Shown: positions 11,133 to 28,311, numbered from the stretch's first letter. The stretch: 32,820 nt of DNA from Promethearchaeota archaeon (GCA_048941265.1 JBHLNT010000033.1:1-32820), one strand, 5' to 3'. A program made the numbers and translations. The notes: generated by a model from the sequence alone, not told the origin.

Positions 11133-11633
11133 ATGGATTTTAAGGACTTTCGAGAAGGTTTACTCTCTTTAGCTTTATTAATATTTATATTTTCACTCAC
11201 ATTTATGATTGGATCAATTCTTCTGAGACCTTATATCAATTTAGAAATTGAAGATCAAAATTTTATAATAATTTTAAATGCGATTAACATAATCTTTAGT
11301 GTGTATTACTTTTTTGAAGCTTTAAGTTTAGAAAAAATCTTTAAATTAGAAGATAAACACATAATCAAATTTGGCAAAAGAATAGGGATCATTACTTTAT
11401 TTTATATGTTCCATTTTTTTTTAATGGGCTCATTGTTATTTCGAGAACTTCATAGTCTGCAGAATATGATGATTATTTCAATTATGCTATTGGAATTAAG
11501 TCTTCTTGCAGTGGTTTTGAAAGAAGTCTACGATTTAGTATTTTTAGAAGATTCTCAAAGGAAACTTGAATTAGACAAAAATCGTAGGATGTATATAAAA
11601 AGAGAGAGACTCCATCCTAAACAATCGGATTAG
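11133..11633 (+). CDS. Hypothetical 4-TM membrane protein
   Basis: Four hydrophobic segments and a charged C-terminal tail. Confidence 0.75.
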   Translation: MDFKDFREGLLSLALLIFIFSLTFMIGSILLRPYINLEIEDQNFIIILNAINIIFSVYYFFEALSLEKIFKLEDKHIIKFGKRIGIITLFYMFHFFLMGSLLFRELHSLQNMMIISIMLLELSLLAVVLKEVYDLVFLEDSQRKLELDKNRRMYIKRERLHPKQSD

Positions 11634-11635
11634 AG

Positions 11636-12871
11636 CTATGATTTTGATAATTTTTCGATAGCAGTATCAATCATTTCTAGTTTTGTGGAATATTTTTCCA
11701 TAAGATTTGCAAATTTCTCAAGATCGATCTCCTTATTTTCCTTTAAAACCTTCAGCTCATTAATCGTTCTTATTATACCTGCTTTTTTGTCGAGAAGCTT
11801 TTCCTTTTTGCTATAGGGGATTTTCTTGTCTAATTTCTTCCGTTGAAAGTTCTTGAATCGTTTAATATTCAGATCTTTTGGGATGAATTTAGTCAGATAG
11901 ACGGTACTCTTAGGTACAAATGGTGCCAAGTTTTCAGGTATAATAATTATTGGCTCAGGATCCTGAATCTTTTTTATTTCCTCGTAATCCAAAACATCCT
12001 CGTTAATTTCTTTAATATTTTCGTTTACAACAGAAATATTATTTTCGATACTTTCCTTTTCTTCTATATCAAGGTCTTTTAAATTGTCGAGCATACCTTC
12101 CCAAATATCTCTACCTTTCATATAGTAAAACTGAGCTTTTTGTTTTAATTTTTTTACTTTATCCTGATTAATAGATGCTATGGAGGATTCTAATGAAGCT
12201 ATAGCCTTTAAATGACATGCTCTGCCCATATCATAATGAAATTGAGCTCTAATCTTTTGACGTTTCTTTTCTCCATGCTTTCTAAGGTAGAAAATTCTTT
12301 TTGAAAGAAGAGAAAGGCCCGAATATAATTTTGAAGCAAAATATATATTATTCTTATGCTCTTCCCATGTTGCTGCTATACTCTGTGCCCAAACTCTTCC
12401 CTCCTCTGAATTTAATTCTAATTCTTCAGAAGCTAATACAGTACCCTTGTCATTTTGATAGACTGTAGCGGCACTAAAATAAGCAGCTGTTTTATAAATT
12501 TTACTACATTCAACCATAGCGATAATGGAGTCTTCCCAATCTTCTTCTTCTTCATAATTTTCTGAAAGATGATAGTATGCTCTTGCTAAAACCCATAATG
12601 CCCGAGCACATTCAAACATAAGGTCACTGATATCAATTTCTCTATTTTCTATATGATCATAAAAAGAGGGTGTGATATCCAATTCCTTTAGGATTTTTTT
12701 ATGACTCTCGTTTTTATAATTTATGTTTAGAATCATAGTATATTCTAATACTAGATTAAGGTCATCTAAAGAGTAATCCTCTTCTTCTTTTTCTAAAGCT
12801 TCTTCGACTTTTTTAATTGAGTAATGAAGGAATCTAATTCTCTGCATTACCTCATCAGCAAAAAACGACAT
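11636..12871 (-). CDS. Helical-repeat protein, putative BRO1-like domain plus C-terminal steadiness-box-like helical hairpin
   Basis: SDLMFECARALWVLARAYYHLS, SKIYKTAAYF, LASEELEL...WAQ and ASKL occur in BRO1 order. The tail GIIRTINEL...EIDLEKF...STK resembles the TSG101/Vps23 SB. The CDS itself is secure; the domain call is by eye. Confidence 0.6.
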   Translation of the reverse strand: MSFFADEVMQRIRFLHYSIKKVEEALEKEEEDYSLDDLNLVLEYTMILNINYKNESHKKILKELDITPSFYDHIENREIDISDLMFECARALWVLARAYYHLSENYEEEEDWEDSIIAMVECSKIYKTAAYFSAATVYQNDKGTVLASEELELNSEEGRVWAQSIAATWEEHKNNIYFASKLYSGLSLLSKRIFYLRKHGEKKRQKIRAQFHYDMGRACHLKAIASLESSIASINQDKVKKLKQKAQFYYMKGRDIWEGMLDNLKDLDIEEKESIENNISVVNENIKEINEDVLDYEEIKKIQDPEPIIIIPENLAPFVPKSTVYLTKFIPKDLNIKRFKNFQRKKLDKKIPYSKKEKLLDKKAGIIRTINELKVLKENKEIDLEKFANLMEKYSTKLEMIDTAIEKLSKS

Positions 12872-13005: not shown

Positions 13006-14325
13006 ATGAGTGAAAATAGGATTTTTATTTTTGAATTTGTCTCTGGTGGTGGTTTTAATCAGGTTGAAATTCCCTCTTCGCTCTTTTGCGAAGGATATAG
13101 TATGTTAAGAACGATTATAGCAGATTTTAAAGCAATGGATTTTGAAATTACCACCCTATTAGATGAGAGAATAAACTTCTTAATACCCTATTTAGAAGCT
13201 GATTCTTTACAATGTATAAAAAATGATGATAATTATATTACTATATTTAAAAAAGTATTAAGAGATTGTGATTATGCTTTTATTATTGCGCCTGAATTTA
13301 CAGATATATTATATGATTTGACGAAAATAGTACAAGAAGAAAAAAAAAAGCTTCTGAGTATATGTTTAAAAGGAATTGAGTTAGGATCGTCAAAAATTAA
13401 AACTTATGATTTTTTTAGAAAAATTAATATTAAAACTCCAAAAACTTATCAAATTCCATTAAAAAATGGTTTGGATGTGGACTTTATTACTCAAAAACTT
13501 AAAGAATTTAAATCTCCAATAGTTATAAAGCCATTTGATGGTGTTGGAGCTGAGTCCATATATCATTTCGAAAAAAAAAATCAAATTTACAATTTTTTTA
13601 ATGATTCAAAAGCCAATAATATTGATCTGAATAGAAAATTTATCGTTCAAGAATATATTAAAGGAGAAGATTTAAGTGTTTCATTAGTAGGAATCCCATT
13701 CAAAACTAAGCAAGCTTACATTCCTCCTAAAATTTTAAGTATAAATTATCAAGATATTAATATTAAGAATTCAAGAGGAGATTCGGAATATTTTGGTGGA
13801 TCCACTCCAATAGAAAATTATACGCATATGATAAAGAATATAATAAAAGTTCTTGAGACACTAGATCTATCAATGTTCAATAGCTTTTTTGGAATAGATT
13901 TTATAAAAAATCAGAATTCTCTGGCATTTATTGAAATAAACCCAAGATTGACGACCTCCTATATCGGAATTAGGAATATTTTAAAGTTTAATCCTGTTGA
14001 GTTACTTTTCAATAATTACTCTAATTCTATGGATTATATGAATTATGAGTTTCAACATCATTCTATTTTTAAAAGGTTAGAATTAGAATACATGGGAGAT
14101 AAGACGATTAATGAAATTATAGATCAAATAGTTCCTAAATTGTTAATTGACATACCTGAATTTATTACGCCTCCTATTTCATTTAAAAAATCAAATAAAA
14201 GTAATAAAATCCATTTTTCTAGCTTTATAGCTACGAAAGAGAAAGATAGTAACTCCTCTCGAAAGCGATTAGCTAAAATTAATGATATTCTCAAAAAAAA
14301 ATTTGAGTTCAGAGTAATTAAATAG
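13006..14325 (+). CDS. ATP-grasp ligase, MfnD (tyramine-L-glutamate ligase)-like
   Basis: FIFEFVSGGG, EGYSML, IIAPE, IKPFDGVG, QEYIKG and EINPRLTTSYIG. Confidence 0.78.
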   Translation: MSENRIFIFEFVSGGGFNQVEIPSSLFCEGYSMLRTIIADFKAMDFEITTLLDERINFLIPYLEADSLQCIKNDDNYITIFKKVLRDCDYAFIIAPEFTDILYDLTKIVQEEKKKLLSICLKGIELGSSKIKTYDFFRKINIKTPKTYQIPLKNGLDVDFITQKLKEFKSPIVIKPFDGVGAESIYHFEKKNQIYNFFNDSKANNIDLNRKFIVQEYIKGEDLSVSLVGIPFKTKQAYIPPKILSINYQDINIKNSRGDSEYFGGSTPIENYTHMIKNIIKVLETLDLSMFNSFFGIDFIKNQNSLAFIEINPRLTTSYIGIRNILKFNPVELLFNNYSNSMDYMNYEFQHHSIFKRLELEYMGDKTINEIIDQIVPKLLIDIPEFITPPISFKKSNKSNKIHFSSFIATKEKDSNSSRKRLAKINDILKKKFEFRVIK

Positions 14326-15217
14326 ATAAGAACAAAACGATAGTAAAGCTACCATAATGAAGCAGCAGGGCGATAATTAACCCTCTTTCAATTTTCAAAC
14401 CTTTACTTTCTTTTAAATTATAAGTTAAGAGCCATAATGATAAAATTTGAAAAAAAATCAACAATACTGTATCTATAAAATTAATAATAGCTATTTGAAT
14501 CAATTCTGTAGATAGCAAAATAAAATGAATTAATAAATATATTACCATTGGATATAAAATAATAGGAAAAGAAAGAAAGAAGTTAAGGGTATTTTCCTTT
14601 TTTCTATAGAATAGTCGACAAGAAATTTCTACAAGTAGAAAATATACAAAAAAGTTTATTATAAACATGACGGCAAAAATTACATGAGAAATAAGCGATA
14701 ATTGATAAATGTCTTCTGGAGTCTTTATAAAAAACAACAAAAATGAATAAAATCCATTTAAACCGCATAATATTGTACCCAATATTAATATTACGATTGA
14801 GATGATTACATTATATGGTTTATCCTTTTCCTCAAATGAAATAAACTTTATAGGTGTTAATGCAAATAAGAATTTTAAAAGAGGAGAGTTATATTCTCCT
14901 TTAGAAAATTTTGATGATTCCATTATTTCTATATTTTCCTTTAGAGAATTATATGCATGAAGTCCTAAATCTGTAAGATAATATTTCTTGTTTTTTCCTT
15001 GTACGATTAGTTGAGATAAAGAGTCTAGATGGTGGTATATTGTACCAGTACTCACTTTTAACGTTTTTTTTAGGTGGGTAAAAGAGGAAAATTCATTATC
15101 TCCGATAATTTGGATAATCTTTCTGCGAATTTCATGGCTTAACGCATAATAAAAACTAGATTCAACATCATGACTATTATCTGCTTCTGACGTTTTTTCC
15201 TTATTGAACTTATTAAT
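14318..15217 (-). CDS. ArsR-type winged-helix protein fused to a multi-TM domain; N-terminus extends beyond the ORF-track start, probable ATT start
   Basis: The frame stays open upstream of GTG 15055 and gives FYYALSHEIRRKIIQIIGDNEFSSFTHLKKTLKVSTGTIYHHL, a complete wHTH. The bounding stop is at 15224-15226 and GGAAGGT lies just upstream. Confidence 0.78.
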   Translation of the reverse strand: MNKFNKEKTSEADNSHDVESSFYYALSHEIRRKIIQIIGDNEFSSFTHLKKTLKVSTGTIYHHLDSLSQLIVQGKNKKYYLTDLGLHAYNSLKENIEIMESSKFSKGEYNSPLLKFLFALTPIKFISFEEKDKPYNVIISIVILILGTILCGLNGFYSFLLFFIKTPEDIYQLSLISHVIFAVMFIINFFVYFLLVEISCRLFYRKKENTLNFFLSFPIILYPMVIYLLIHFILLSTELIQIAIINFIDTVLLIFFQILSLWLLTYNLKESKGLKIERGLIIALLLHYGSFTIVLFLSI

Positions 15218-25603: not shown

Positions 25604-27469
25604 CTATACTTTTCGATATCCGTCTTCCCACTTTTTTTTCAGCCATAAAGCGCTCTCTTTTGTATCATACACAATGGATCGTTCAGAAATGCCGCCTAAG
25701 TACTCTTTTTCAATGTTAATATGGTGGGAAAAAAGTTCTTTTTTAATTGCATCAATATTATCTTGAAAATCTCCTCCTTGTTCATAAATATTGTTAGCTC
25801 CTCCAACTATAATCGCTTCAAGATTATCTTTATTAGCGCCATTATATAAAATTGTATCCAGCAGTAAAGATACAGAAGTATCTATATATCTATGAGGGAA
25901 TAATGTAGTATCATTTTTTACAACCGGCGATTTTGGAAGTATCATATGGGACATCGCATAAACCTTATGAACTTTATCTTGAAGAATTAATGCTATTCCA
26001 GAACCCAGCCCATAAATTGAGAATTTTGAAGATTTATTCCCATCATCATGAGAATTAATTAGGGCATAATGACCAACCGGTAAATTTAATTCCCCTTTAA
26101 TATTTGGATGGATTATTCTATCAGGATCTTCCATAATAGATAAATCGACTGGTTCTGATTTTGGCGCTAAAGATTTATTTTTTAATCTTTGTTGCTTAGT
26201 AGGTGTTTTTAGATGGCTTTTTGTTTTCTTTATATCTTTTTCTTTTACCTCAATTTGCTCTAACAGATCTTCAATCTGTTTTTCTCTTAACCCTACTAAG
26301 ACTTCTCTTTGCCCTAACTGTGCTTCTTTTTGTTTAATTTTTGATTCTCTCTCATTTAATTGTTTCTCTCGTAACTCAATTTGATTTAATCGTCTGATAA
26401 TTTGAAGTTCACGTTGGTCTAATATCTTTTTACGGGAATCTATTTGGGTTTCTGTTTCGACTTTAATGTTTTTAATTGGTTCTGTTTGTTTAATCTTCAT
26501 CCTTCTTTCTTGTGAAGGTGGAGACGCACTTTTCCTCGAATTTTCTCGTTTGATTACCTTTTTCTCTACTTTATGTTTAATTTCCTTTTTATTAATCTGT
26601 ATTTTGGTGGGTTTTTGGGATTTTTGACTAATTTTAATCTTTTGATTTAACTTGTTTTTCACATAAAAATGGTTATTAGTATCAATTGATTTGAAGTTAC
26701 TCTGTACATTAACTAACATCTCTGTCTTTCCTAAAATTAGGAGTCCCCCCTGCACTAAATGATTTTCTAAAGTTCTTAATAGTTTTTCTTTCGATTCGCC
26801 ATTTATGTAAATTAGAAGGTTTCTACAAAATATTACATCATATTTTGTATTAGTCTTATGCCCTCTGATAATATCCTCTTCAAAAAATTCAACCTTATTT
26901 TTTATTTCATTACTAATTTTAAATTTAGGGCCTAGTTGAGTATCTAGTTTAGTAAAATGAGTCTCCAAATAATTTTTAGGAACCTCATGAATAGAATATT
27001 CACCATACACCCCGGCTCTAGCAATTTTTAAAGCTGTTTTATCAATATCAGATGCCACAATCTCGTAATCAGGAAAATTTATAATTTTAGATTTCAATTT
27101 ATTAAATAATATAGCAATCGAATAGGGTTCCTCTCCAGAAGCACAAGGAGCAGACCATATGCGGATTGGTCTTTTGAGATCTGACACATATTGTCTTATA
27201 AATTCTTCAAATCTTTCAAAAACTTCGTAATTTCTAAAAAAATATGTATAGTTTATAGTGAATTTATCAAGAAAATGGTTGATCTCATTTGGATTAGATG
27301 CGAGATAATTAATATATTCTTGATACGAATTTATATCTAAATTTTTAACTCTAAAATGAATTCTTCTTTCGAGGAATTTCCTTTGATAGTATTCAAACTT
27401 AATTCCCGTTGCATCTTTTAATTTATCTATTAATAAATCAATCGAATTAGATTCTATCGCAATTGTTAT
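25604..27469 (-). CDS. CheR methyltransferase - coiled coil - CheD-like fusion protein (about 620 aa); N-terminus extends beyond the ORF-track start, probable ATA/ATT start
   Basis: The upstream in-frame extension gives the CheR N-domain (DATGIKFEYYQRKFLERRI...FTINYTYFFRN). CheR motifs IWSAPCASGEEPYS, ASDID and DVIFCRNLLIY; CheD motifs GLGS, HMILP, IVGGA and GGISERSI. Confidence 0.88.
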   Translation of the reverse strand: MTIAIESNSIDLLIDKLKDATGIKFEYYQRKFLERRIHFRVKNLDINSYQEYINYLASNPNEINHFLDKFTINYTYFFRNYEVFERFEEFIRQYVSDLKRPIRIWSAPCASGEEPYSIAILFNKLKSKIINFPDYEIVASDIDKTALKIARAGVYGEYSIHEVPKNYLETHFTKLDTQLGPKFKISNEIKNKVEFFEEDIIRGHKTNTKYDVIFCRNLLIYINGESKEKLLRTLENHLVQGGLLILGKTEMLVNVQSNFKSIDTNNHFYVKNKLNQKIKISQKSQKPTKIQINKKEIKHKVEKKVIKRENSRKSASPPSQERRMKIKQTEPIKNIKVETETQIDSRKKILDQRELQIIRRLNQIELREKQLNERESKIKQKEAQLGQREVLVGLREKQIEDLLEQIEVKEKDIKKTKSHLKTPTKQQRLKNKSLAPKSEPVDLSIMEDPDRIIHPNIKGELNLPVGHYALINSHDDGNKSSKFSIYGLGSGIALILQDKVHKVYAMSHMILPKSPVVKNDTTLFPHRYIDTSVSLLLDTILYNGANKDNLEAIIVGGANNIYEQGGDFQDNIDAIKKELFSHHINIEKEYLGGISERSIVYDTKESALWLKKKWEDGYRKV

Positions 27470-27609: not shown

Positions 27610-28311
27610 TTAAGATAATGATATAAATCCAAATTTAATTAAATTCTTGCTTATCGCATAAACTCTCTCTTCATCCATTTTTAACTCTTCTGCGATTTGT
27701 GATATCGATTTTTTACCATTTATTTTATTAAATACTATGCAAGAGGTTTCACCAGTTAAATAATGCTCTGGATTTATGTTTTTAGAAGTTTTAAATTGAG
27801 GGACATAATTAAAATAATCTGGAACGTTTTCCAGATTTTTAGAATTTGAGAGTTCTTTAGGAGGATTATAAATTTGTATTTCCTCACCCGCGTCCTCATC
27901 ATTTTCTAAAAAATTATCGATAACATCCTCAAAGGTTTCAAACATCTCCCTTCTCCCCGCCCATTTTTTTATTTGGTCGATTCCAAATCTATTTACAAAG
28001 CCCTTTGAGACATTCTTTAAGAAACTCCTAACATCTCCACTATTGGAAGTATTATCGAATGTAGCCAAATACACTAAATTTTGAACATTTGTATCATTCA
28101 AGAATGATAATTTTAAGTTATTTTTAGATAATTTTAGTTCTTTGATTGAACCTAACTCTTCAAATTGGTCTGAAAAAGAATTTAACGCAGAAAAGAAGCC
28201 TGATAACATAATAAGGTCATTATCTTTAGTAAAAATTCCCTTTTGAGAATTTGAGAGATTCTTAGCAAGTAATGGAACACCATCCTTTATGATAACTAAA
28301 TCCTTTATCAT
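27610..28311 (-). CDS. Longin-like domain plus C-terminal winged helix (Asgard-type)
   Basis: LVIIKDGVPL and MLSGFFSALNSFS...IKELKL fit a longin-like pattern; INGKKSISQIAEEL...NLIKFGFI is a wHTH. Confidence 0.65.
   Translation of the reverse strand: MIKDLVIIKDGVPLLAKNLSNSQKGIFTKDNDLIMLSGFFSALNSFSDQFEELGSIKELKLSKNNLKLSFLNDTNVQNLVYLATFDNTSNSGDVRSFLKNVSKGFVNRFGIDQIKKWAGRREMFETFEDVIDNFLENDEDAGEEIQIYNPPKELSNSKNLENVPDYFNYVPQFKTSKNINPEHYLTGETSCIVFNKINGKKSISQIAEELKMDEERVYAISKNLIKFGFISLS

Follow-up and report, generated by a model that had tools for sequence, protein, structure and literature searches.

P0001, a 411-residue protein of a Loki-type Asgard archaeon (Promethearchaeota archaeon, GCA_048941265.1 JBHLNT010000033.1), is predicted to join a BRO1 domain to a steadiness-box-type helical hairpin at the C-terminus in a single chain. 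It may serve as a one-chain ESCRT adaptor working in parallel to ESCRT-II, with the hairpin on ESCRT-I boxes and the BRO1 groove on an ESCRT-III helix, a reading to which we assign a probability of about 0.45. The gene and its surroundings were analysed in a window comprising the whole 32,820-nt stretch of DNA, and the features discussed below are collected in Table 1.

Table 1. Features of the P0001 gene and its two neighbours (window positions)
Feature	Position	Strand	Basis
Gene for BRO1-steadiness-box protein P0001, 411 aa	11636..12871	-	ORF and translation
Predicted BRO1 domain, P0001 residues 1-320	11912..12871	-	VIA-align and Foldseek on predicted structure
Helices bearing the putative counterpart of the CHMP4-binding groove (A166, W169, F178, L182)	12326..12376	-	profile alignment to HD-PTP
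Pro-rich segment DPEPIIIIPENLAPFVP, residues 304-320	11912..11962	-	within structural alignment; kept in hairpin-less homologs
Flexible linker, residues 321-351	11819..11911	-	low pLDDT
Steadiness-box-type helical hairpin, residues 352-411	11639..11818	-	structural and profile matches
ATP-grasp protein, divergent neighbour	13006..14325	+	Pfam ATP-grasp_3, E 5e-26
166-aa hydrophobic protein, convergent neighbour	11133..11633	+	no Pfam family match

The P0001 frame is a real, conserved gene. A search in which 8000 candidates were scored returned 734 relatives at E ≤ 0.001, which are named as hypothetical proteins of Promethearchaeota or Lokiarchaeota. Within its own Lokiarchaeial family, the gene was found in 67 of 68 genomes by a single-protein search and in 127 of 134 by a profile search, and eleven pattern matches on viral contigs included no confirmed case. 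All peptides quoted in a preliminary description of this DNA lie within the 411-aa frame where they had been placed: the segment SDLMFECAR...ACHLKA covers residues 82-223 (12628-12203), and the tail described there starts at K363 (11785). The ATP-grasp gene and the gene of the 166-aa hydrophobic protein are both syntenic, each accompanying P0001 orthologs in 27 of 30 loci, where no sign of a functional link between the ATP-grasp protein and P0001 was seen.

The structure of P0001 was predicted from 131 aligned sequences (pLDDT 88.6, pTM 0.77). The model begins with three helices and a β-hairpin (residues 69-80). Six long helices follow, then a Pro-rich end in extended conformation, a loose linker and the final hairpin. 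In an exhaustive VIA-align comparison of residues 1-320 with 48,161 chains, the five best matches were all BRO1 domains, from HD-PTP, Bro1, ALIX (twice) and BROX, with Z scores of 21.1-22.3 and rmsd values of 3.4-4.2 over 270-294 residues. They were followed by the best TPR chain with a Z score of 11.8 (rmsd 6.0), so that BRO1 fits far better than the generic TPR solenoid against which the preliminary description had weighed it. At E ≤ 0.001, Foldseek produced 21 matches. The 18 listed among ranks 1-21 are all BRO1 domains (E 2.6e-6 to 5.8e-4), and the first other fold appears at E 6.8e-3. On the predicted structure, residues 1-320 almost certainly adopt the BRO1 fold. The Pro-rich segment had previously been taken for a linker to the tail, but it forms the end of the BRO1 domain, with structural alignments reaching residues 319-320. 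The flexible part follows it, with pLDDT values of 49-65 across residues 321-360 that fall below 50 at 331-335 and 351-353.

The BRO1 resemblance proposed in the preliminary description is borne out by this structure and by homologs, and not by sequence matches of P0001 itself. Searched alone, P0001 has no BRO1 or Vps23_core match in Pfam at E ≤ 1 and no match among PDB sequences at E ≤ 10, the family profiles A1 and A3 gave no BRO1 or Vps23 match in either collection, and the Pfam BRO1 and Vps23_core profiles run over its own genome gave no match at the gene. The bridge is provided by the homolog P0147, which the family profile matches with an E of 1.7e-46 and which aligns with P0001 at 26% identity over 392 columns (E 1e-26). 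The best Pfam match of full-length P0147 is BRO1 (PF03097, E 3.2e-8), in agreement with a precomputed PF03097 annotation; its 33.3 bits place this best homolog just under the gathering cut-off of 35.1 bits, and its sequence has no match in PDB. Four further homologs match Pfam BRO1 at E 5e-4 to 0.09, and the profile A4 aligns weakly with HD-PTP (5crv, E 0.031). In the atlas, the cluster containing P0001 has been named automatically as 'putative BRO1 domain-containing protein'; the matches that come next are eukaryotic BRO1 clusters at 0.81-0.85, a lead only, as these values are below the 0.9 line of the tool. Because of the fold and the transitive homology through P0147, P0001 can be regarded as a BRO1-domain protein despite its position below the Pfam cut-off.

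P0001 shares the whole-domain fold with eukaryotic BRO1 proteins (PF03097), including HD-PTP/PTPN23 (3rau), yeast Bro1 (1zb1), ALIX/PDCD6IP (2oew, 3c3o) and BROX (3r9m, 3um3), with Z scores of 21-22. The Pro-rich end segment of eukaryotic BRO1 domains is kept, as the L202 and I206 groove positions would be on a weak alignment, whereas identity to the BRO1 structures is just 10-14% and the putative counterpart of L189 is Ala. In contrast to ALIX, Bro1 and HD-PTP, P0001 has no V domain, and only 91 residues, which bear the hairpin, follow its BRO1 domain. Neither a P[ST]xP nor a YPxL motif is present in P0001. Lacking both the V domain and a PSAP-type motif, it is not an ALIX ortholog.

The putative ESCRT-III groove was mapped through the weak profile alignment to HD-PTP 5crv, in which L189, K192, L202 and I206 of HD-PTP correspond to A166, W169, F178 and L182 of P0001. 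According to the available text of PMC5501724, these four HD-PTP residues are among the CHMP4 contacts, the double mutation L202D/I206D blocks CHMP4 binding, CHMP4 is anchored in the groove by a Trp, and the Trp-less helices of SARA and endofin use the same groove. On this weak-alignment mapping, Phe occupies position 178 in 99 of 100 orthologs and Leu occupies position 182 in all 100, whereas position 166 invariably holds Ala or Ser; at position 169, 83 orthologs have Arg or Lys, and P0001 has Trp. Two of the three core CHMP4-binding hydrophobes would therefore be kept and one reduced. The helix near K124 was left out of the comparison because of a three-residue ambiguity in its register relative to HD-PTP K141/T145/Q148. 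The BRO1 form of another Asgard family, f18, retains Leu at the position of HD-PTP L189. As to the ligand, the ESCRT-IIIB of the P0001 genome is a Vps20/32/60-class protein (E 5e-73 to 9fn1) whose C-terminal helix, like those of 29 orthologs, is of the type L-x-x-E-I-x-K-L-x-x-E-L, and a CHMP4-type Trp occurs in none of the 30 family tails. Since the HD-PTP groove takes the Trp-less SARA and endofin, ESCRT-III could still be bound by P0001; for the same reason, a kept groove does not name its ligand.

Such a groove would also suit a cargo adaptor attached to ESCRT-I, with the hairpin on Vps28 or Znr_PH_CC_SB (asCOG cog.011556 in the available text of PMC10936438) and the groove occupied by a helix of a cargo or regulatory protein instead of ESCRT-III. 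P0001 would then be one of many Asgard fusions of a box with a presumed recognition domain, a role proposed in the parts of Makarova et al. 2024 at hand (PMC10936438); like P0001, these fusions are encoded outside ESCRT operons. This reading gains from the small residue at the L189 counterpart, from the Trp-less ESCRT-IIIB tails, from the non-ESCRT-III helices bound by HD-PTP and from the N-terminal helix-hairpin-helix domain added in paralogs. Nevertheless, it appears unlikely, given the near invariance of the L202 and I206 counterparts and the precedent of SARA and endofin, after which a Leu-rich Asgard tail could fit the groove.

The tail of P0001 forms two helices (residues 355-378 and 384-410), and its best structural matches are three chains of the yeast Vps23 steadiness box (2caz, 2p22, 2f66), with Z scores of 9.7-9.8 and rmsd values of 1.2-1.9 over 59-62 residues (2caz_D, Z 9.8, rmsd 1.2; 2p22_A, Z 9.7, rmsd 1.2). 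Unrelated hairpins reach Z 9.3, within one Z unit of the Vps23 box. Compared by hhalign, 15 tails of the family and 14 Asgard UEV-Vps23 boxes align at 97.7% over 60 ungapped columns. In contrast to Vps23, P0001 lacks a UEV domain, a coiled-coil stalk and a Vps23_core match. The tail profile found matches in 91 of 151 Asgard genomes, and all five loci inspected outside the family encode ESCRT-I-type proteins: three are UEV-Vps23, adjoining Vps28 and Vps22, and two are Znr_PH_CC_SB, adjoining ESCRT-III genes. The remaining matches outside the family mostly lie in frames of about 250 or about 500 codons, the sizes of these two proteins. On the Vps23 box profile, 14 of the 15 family tails score above all 739 scored shuffles.

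The steadiness-box assignment made in the preliminary description is therefore supported at the level of the family, but the copy in P0001 is weak. On its own, the P0001 tail scores 11.4 bits on the Vps23 box profile (shuffles up to ~10), and this profile, run over the P0001 genome, reports Znr_PH_CC_SB at 36 bits and Vps28 weakly, but not P0001. Against PDB, the tail profile places yeast Vps23 at ranks 8 and 11 of 13, beneath unrelated chains (E 0.69-1.0). A SHOCT-like generic hairpin, the alternative named earlier, retains some probability: Pfam matched SHOCT in four of the 15 tails and Vps23_core in one, although ESCRT-I boxes lead among the matches of the tail profile outside the family. 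The tail belongs to a broad Asgard class of box-like hairpins; this class is promiscuous and the P0001 copy is a weak member. The tail is probably akin to Asgard ESCRT-I boxes and would likely dock on ESCRT-I. A 578-aa protein of the same genome (G000:C347:163-1899) has an internal hairpin, the second-best tail-profile match there (E 0.023). In family f7, a bactofilin-like protein (L068:1480-2382, L071, L073, L076) bears a box-like hairpin at its N-terminus, with weak matches to CdvA and SHOCT, and is encoded next to an HTH gene.

The SHOCT matches would suit an ESCRT-III binder whose hairpin, as a SHOCT-like oligomerisation module, associates only with itself, yielding a dimeric cross-linker similar to BROX or ALIX and unconnected with ESCRT-I. 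The P0001 tail also prefers the N-terminal hairpin of a bactofilin-like protein, scoring 23.8 bits on its profile, above its Vps23 box score. Furthermore, homologs in three other Asgard groups have no hairpin, and genomes in which Vps28 was not detected still keep the gene: a single-protein query missed Vps28 in nine of 41 family genomes, including all seven of the genera g7, g8, g71 and g72, which carry the P0001 gene. However, the family tails align with the bactofilin hairpin at 95.8% over 45 columns, less than with the Vps23 boxes in both respects, and the best tail-profile matches outside the family are ESCRT-I boxes, which makes a hairpin that only self-associates quite unlikely.

A broad profile run over 281 Asgard genomes gave strong BRO1-family matches in only four of 29 families sampled (own family, 63 of 64 genomes; f29, 10 of 10; f18, 4 of 5; f3, 1 of 1), with six weak partial matches elsewhere; all four Hel-type genomes match this profile. 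The BRO1-fold family is present in at least four Asgard groups with 15-25% identity between them, a divergence that suggests a domain of old archaeal origin. In a midpoint-rooted FastTree tree of 33 archaeal rows, from which duplicates of the P0155/P0141 type were left out, the hairpin-bearing forms make up one clade with a support of 1.0. The architectures are diverse. Longer paralogs have the order helix-hairpin-helix, linker, BRO1-box; at L031-L036 and L046-L050 (458-726 aa), most carry an N-terminal helix-hairpin-helix and a charged linker, the paralogs sometimes stand in tandem, a small membrane gene of their own follows in 10 of 11 loci, and dnaJ/dnaK are often near. The f18 form (L040-L043) continues from BRO1 into an acidic repeat linker (e.g. 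VEDAVE) and a 90-aa C-terminal domain of no assigned kind, and the f29 form ends in a zinc ribbon.

In Helarchaeota, fusions of about 580-600 aa (P0179, P0185, P0205-P0218; L176-L179) contain a JAB/MPN (JAMM) protease, a short helical pair and a BRO1 domain, in this order. The JAB motif HxH-x7-S-x2-D is intact, with the metal-binding motif invariant in 16 sequences, and the predicted structure of the fusion matches both HD-PTP BRO1 (E 6.6e-7) and Rpn11 (E 1.2e-6). It is a putative deubiquitinase carried by a BRO1 domain.

As the preliminary description had noted, the P0001 gene lies outside any ESCRT operon: a Pfam scan found no ESCRT gene within the window, and none adjoins the gene in the 16 ortholog neighbourhoods viewed. 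Other genes on the minus strand of the window include one for a membrane protein with a weak Yip1 match (E 2e-4) and an HTH-like N-terminal start (14318-15055). Another encodes a 527-aa protein in which a putative CheR methyltransferase, a coiled coil and a putative CheD seem to be combined (25604-27187). A third encodes a 233-aa protein that by eye is longin/roadblock-like and has a winged helix at its C-terminus (weak match to TrmB, E 0.007; 27610-28311). In f29, a conserved operon (L044:2834-6500, L051-L061; 12 loci) encodes an MreB/actin-like protein, a 230-aa low-complexity protein, the BRO1-ribbon protein and a small GTPase. The lack of ESCRT neighbours, the MreB/actin-like and GTPase genes in the f29 operon and the patchy spread over four of 29 families would fit a genuine BRO1 homolog with a role apart from the ESCRT pathway, as a general peptide-binding scaffold. 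This is distinctly improbable, as the domain has been fused twice independently, once with a steadiness-box-type hairpin and once with a JAMM protease, and both cases speak for the ubiquitin-ESCRT system. A generic TPR solenoid convergent on BRO1 can hardly be right: despite the TPR_16 match (E 0.12) that is the sole repeat-like Pfam match of P0001, the designed TPR proteins topping the PDB sequence search (E 0.006-0.03) and the low identity to BRO1 structures, it is largely refuted by the ten-point Z gap, a match spanning the whole domain including the β-hairpin and the Pro-rich end, a clear homolog matching Pfam BRO1 at E 3e-8 and a second, independent model (the Helarchaeota fusion) that gives BRO1 too.

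The potential partners of a one-chain adaptor are encoded on other contigs of the P0001 genome, namely Vps28 with an N-terminal box (C196:8523), Znr_PH_CC_SB (C335:47278), Vps22, two Vps25-like proteins, two ESCRT-IIIA proteins, one ESCRT-IIIB (C335:50485-51141) and Vps4. The proposal that P0001 bypasses ESCRT-II did not hold, and a replacement of ESCRT-II was rejected: with Vps22 and both Vps25-like proteins present, a route through P0001 would be at most parallel. Among the matches listed for 83 genomes of the family (f1), none is a full-length UEV-Vps23; they are partial (best E 4e-12) and represent E2 domains or the box of Znr_PH_CC_SB. As a control, a genome from a different order of the class matches the UEV-Vps23 profile end to end (3e-93). 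Vps28 and Znr_PH_CC_SB are common in the family. If full-length Vps23 is absent, the Vps28 box would be short of its usual partner, a situation that would suit a BRO1-box subunit. Full-length Vps23 was also not found in four genomes searched of the sister family, where the P0001 gene was detected by profile search in none of 14 genomes, and three single-contig genomes gave no P0001 match at E ≤ 0.05. A strict tie of P0001 to the loss of Vps23 was therefore rejected, and Lokiarchaeial ESCRT would work without this protein.

Eukaryotic ALIX and Bro1 make a route from ESCRT-I to ESCRT-III, parallel to ESCRT-II, through peptide links. In the one-chain adaptor that we favour for P0001, the hairpin would find its partner in the Vps28 or Znr_PH_CC_SB boxes, the flexible linker would join it to the BRO1 domain, and the BRO1 groove would take the C-terminal helix of ESCRT-III. 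The two ESCRT stages would thus be linked within one polypeptide while ESCRT-II operates alongside. Both contacts, like the role in the pathway, are proposed here as the most probable of the readings considered.

The Pfam family PF18097 is the C-terminal domain of Vta1. In the material at hand from Eme et al. 2023 (PMC10307638), an Asgard 'Bro1' appears in four table rows under this family, with lengths of up to 180 aa and no Lokiarchaeial entry. It was rejected as prior art, because only the name is shared. The same rows are reused in the dataset of a 2026 review (PMC13037920), where the part at hand gives Bro1 as 0% in Lokiarchaeales. The available text of the 2024 archaeal ESCRT survey (PMC10936438) describes many other steadiness-box fusions and states that no Bro1/Alix orthologs could be recognised in Asgard archaea. 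BRO1-like Asgard folds, by contrast, have already been tabulated: in supplementary file 3 (Data_S3) of Kostlbacher et al. 2026 (PMC12962969), the rows at hand list five Asgard models with a BRO1 or PalA match, three from Loki and one from Hela to BRO1 and one from HeGe to PalA/RIM20. The covered ranges are 246-610, 247-613 and 177-540; 253-574; and 23-337. Two Loki rows are flagged as not significant, and four of the five are labelled 'ESP, Liu et al. 2021'. Judged from these ranges alone, the rows would correspond to the longer paralogs of Loki, to the JAB fusion of Hel and probably to the f29 form of 372 aa. The hairpin is not mentioned in these rows, and 'bro1' does not occur in the main text. 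The BRO1-steadiness-box fusion itself was not found in print: a literature search, with most subscription journals outside its reach, returned no paper describing it, and term searches of PMC9192718, PMC13734099, bioRxiv 2024.07.03.601958 and 2025.11.01.685982 gave nothing on it. Any claim of a pre-eukaryotic ALIX branch is tempered by the table of PMC12962969, which in the rows at hand lists such structural matches without comment.

With the different fusions taken together, a broader reading can be proposed, although we consider it rather doubtful, in which BRO1 is older than eukaryotes and was pre-wired into the Asgard ubiquitin-ESCRT system. Eukaryotes split the delivery of deubiquitinases to ESCRT-III between Bro1 with Doa4 and AMSH. 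According to this proposal, P0001 would represent a single-chain precursor of the ALIX branch, occupying a Vps23-like seat within the ESCRT-I headpiece and directly recruiting ESCRT-IIIB in a family seemingly without UEV-Vps23, and the BRO1 domain of the Helarchaeota fusions would carry a JAMM deubiquitinase to ESCRT-III. A conserved Asgard BRO1-fold family whose fusion partner is a steadiness-box-type hairpin, a JAMM protease or a zinc ribbon would put ESCRT-III recruitment of the ALIX type before eukaryotes, a question that becomes testable by means of small soluble proteins and peptides.
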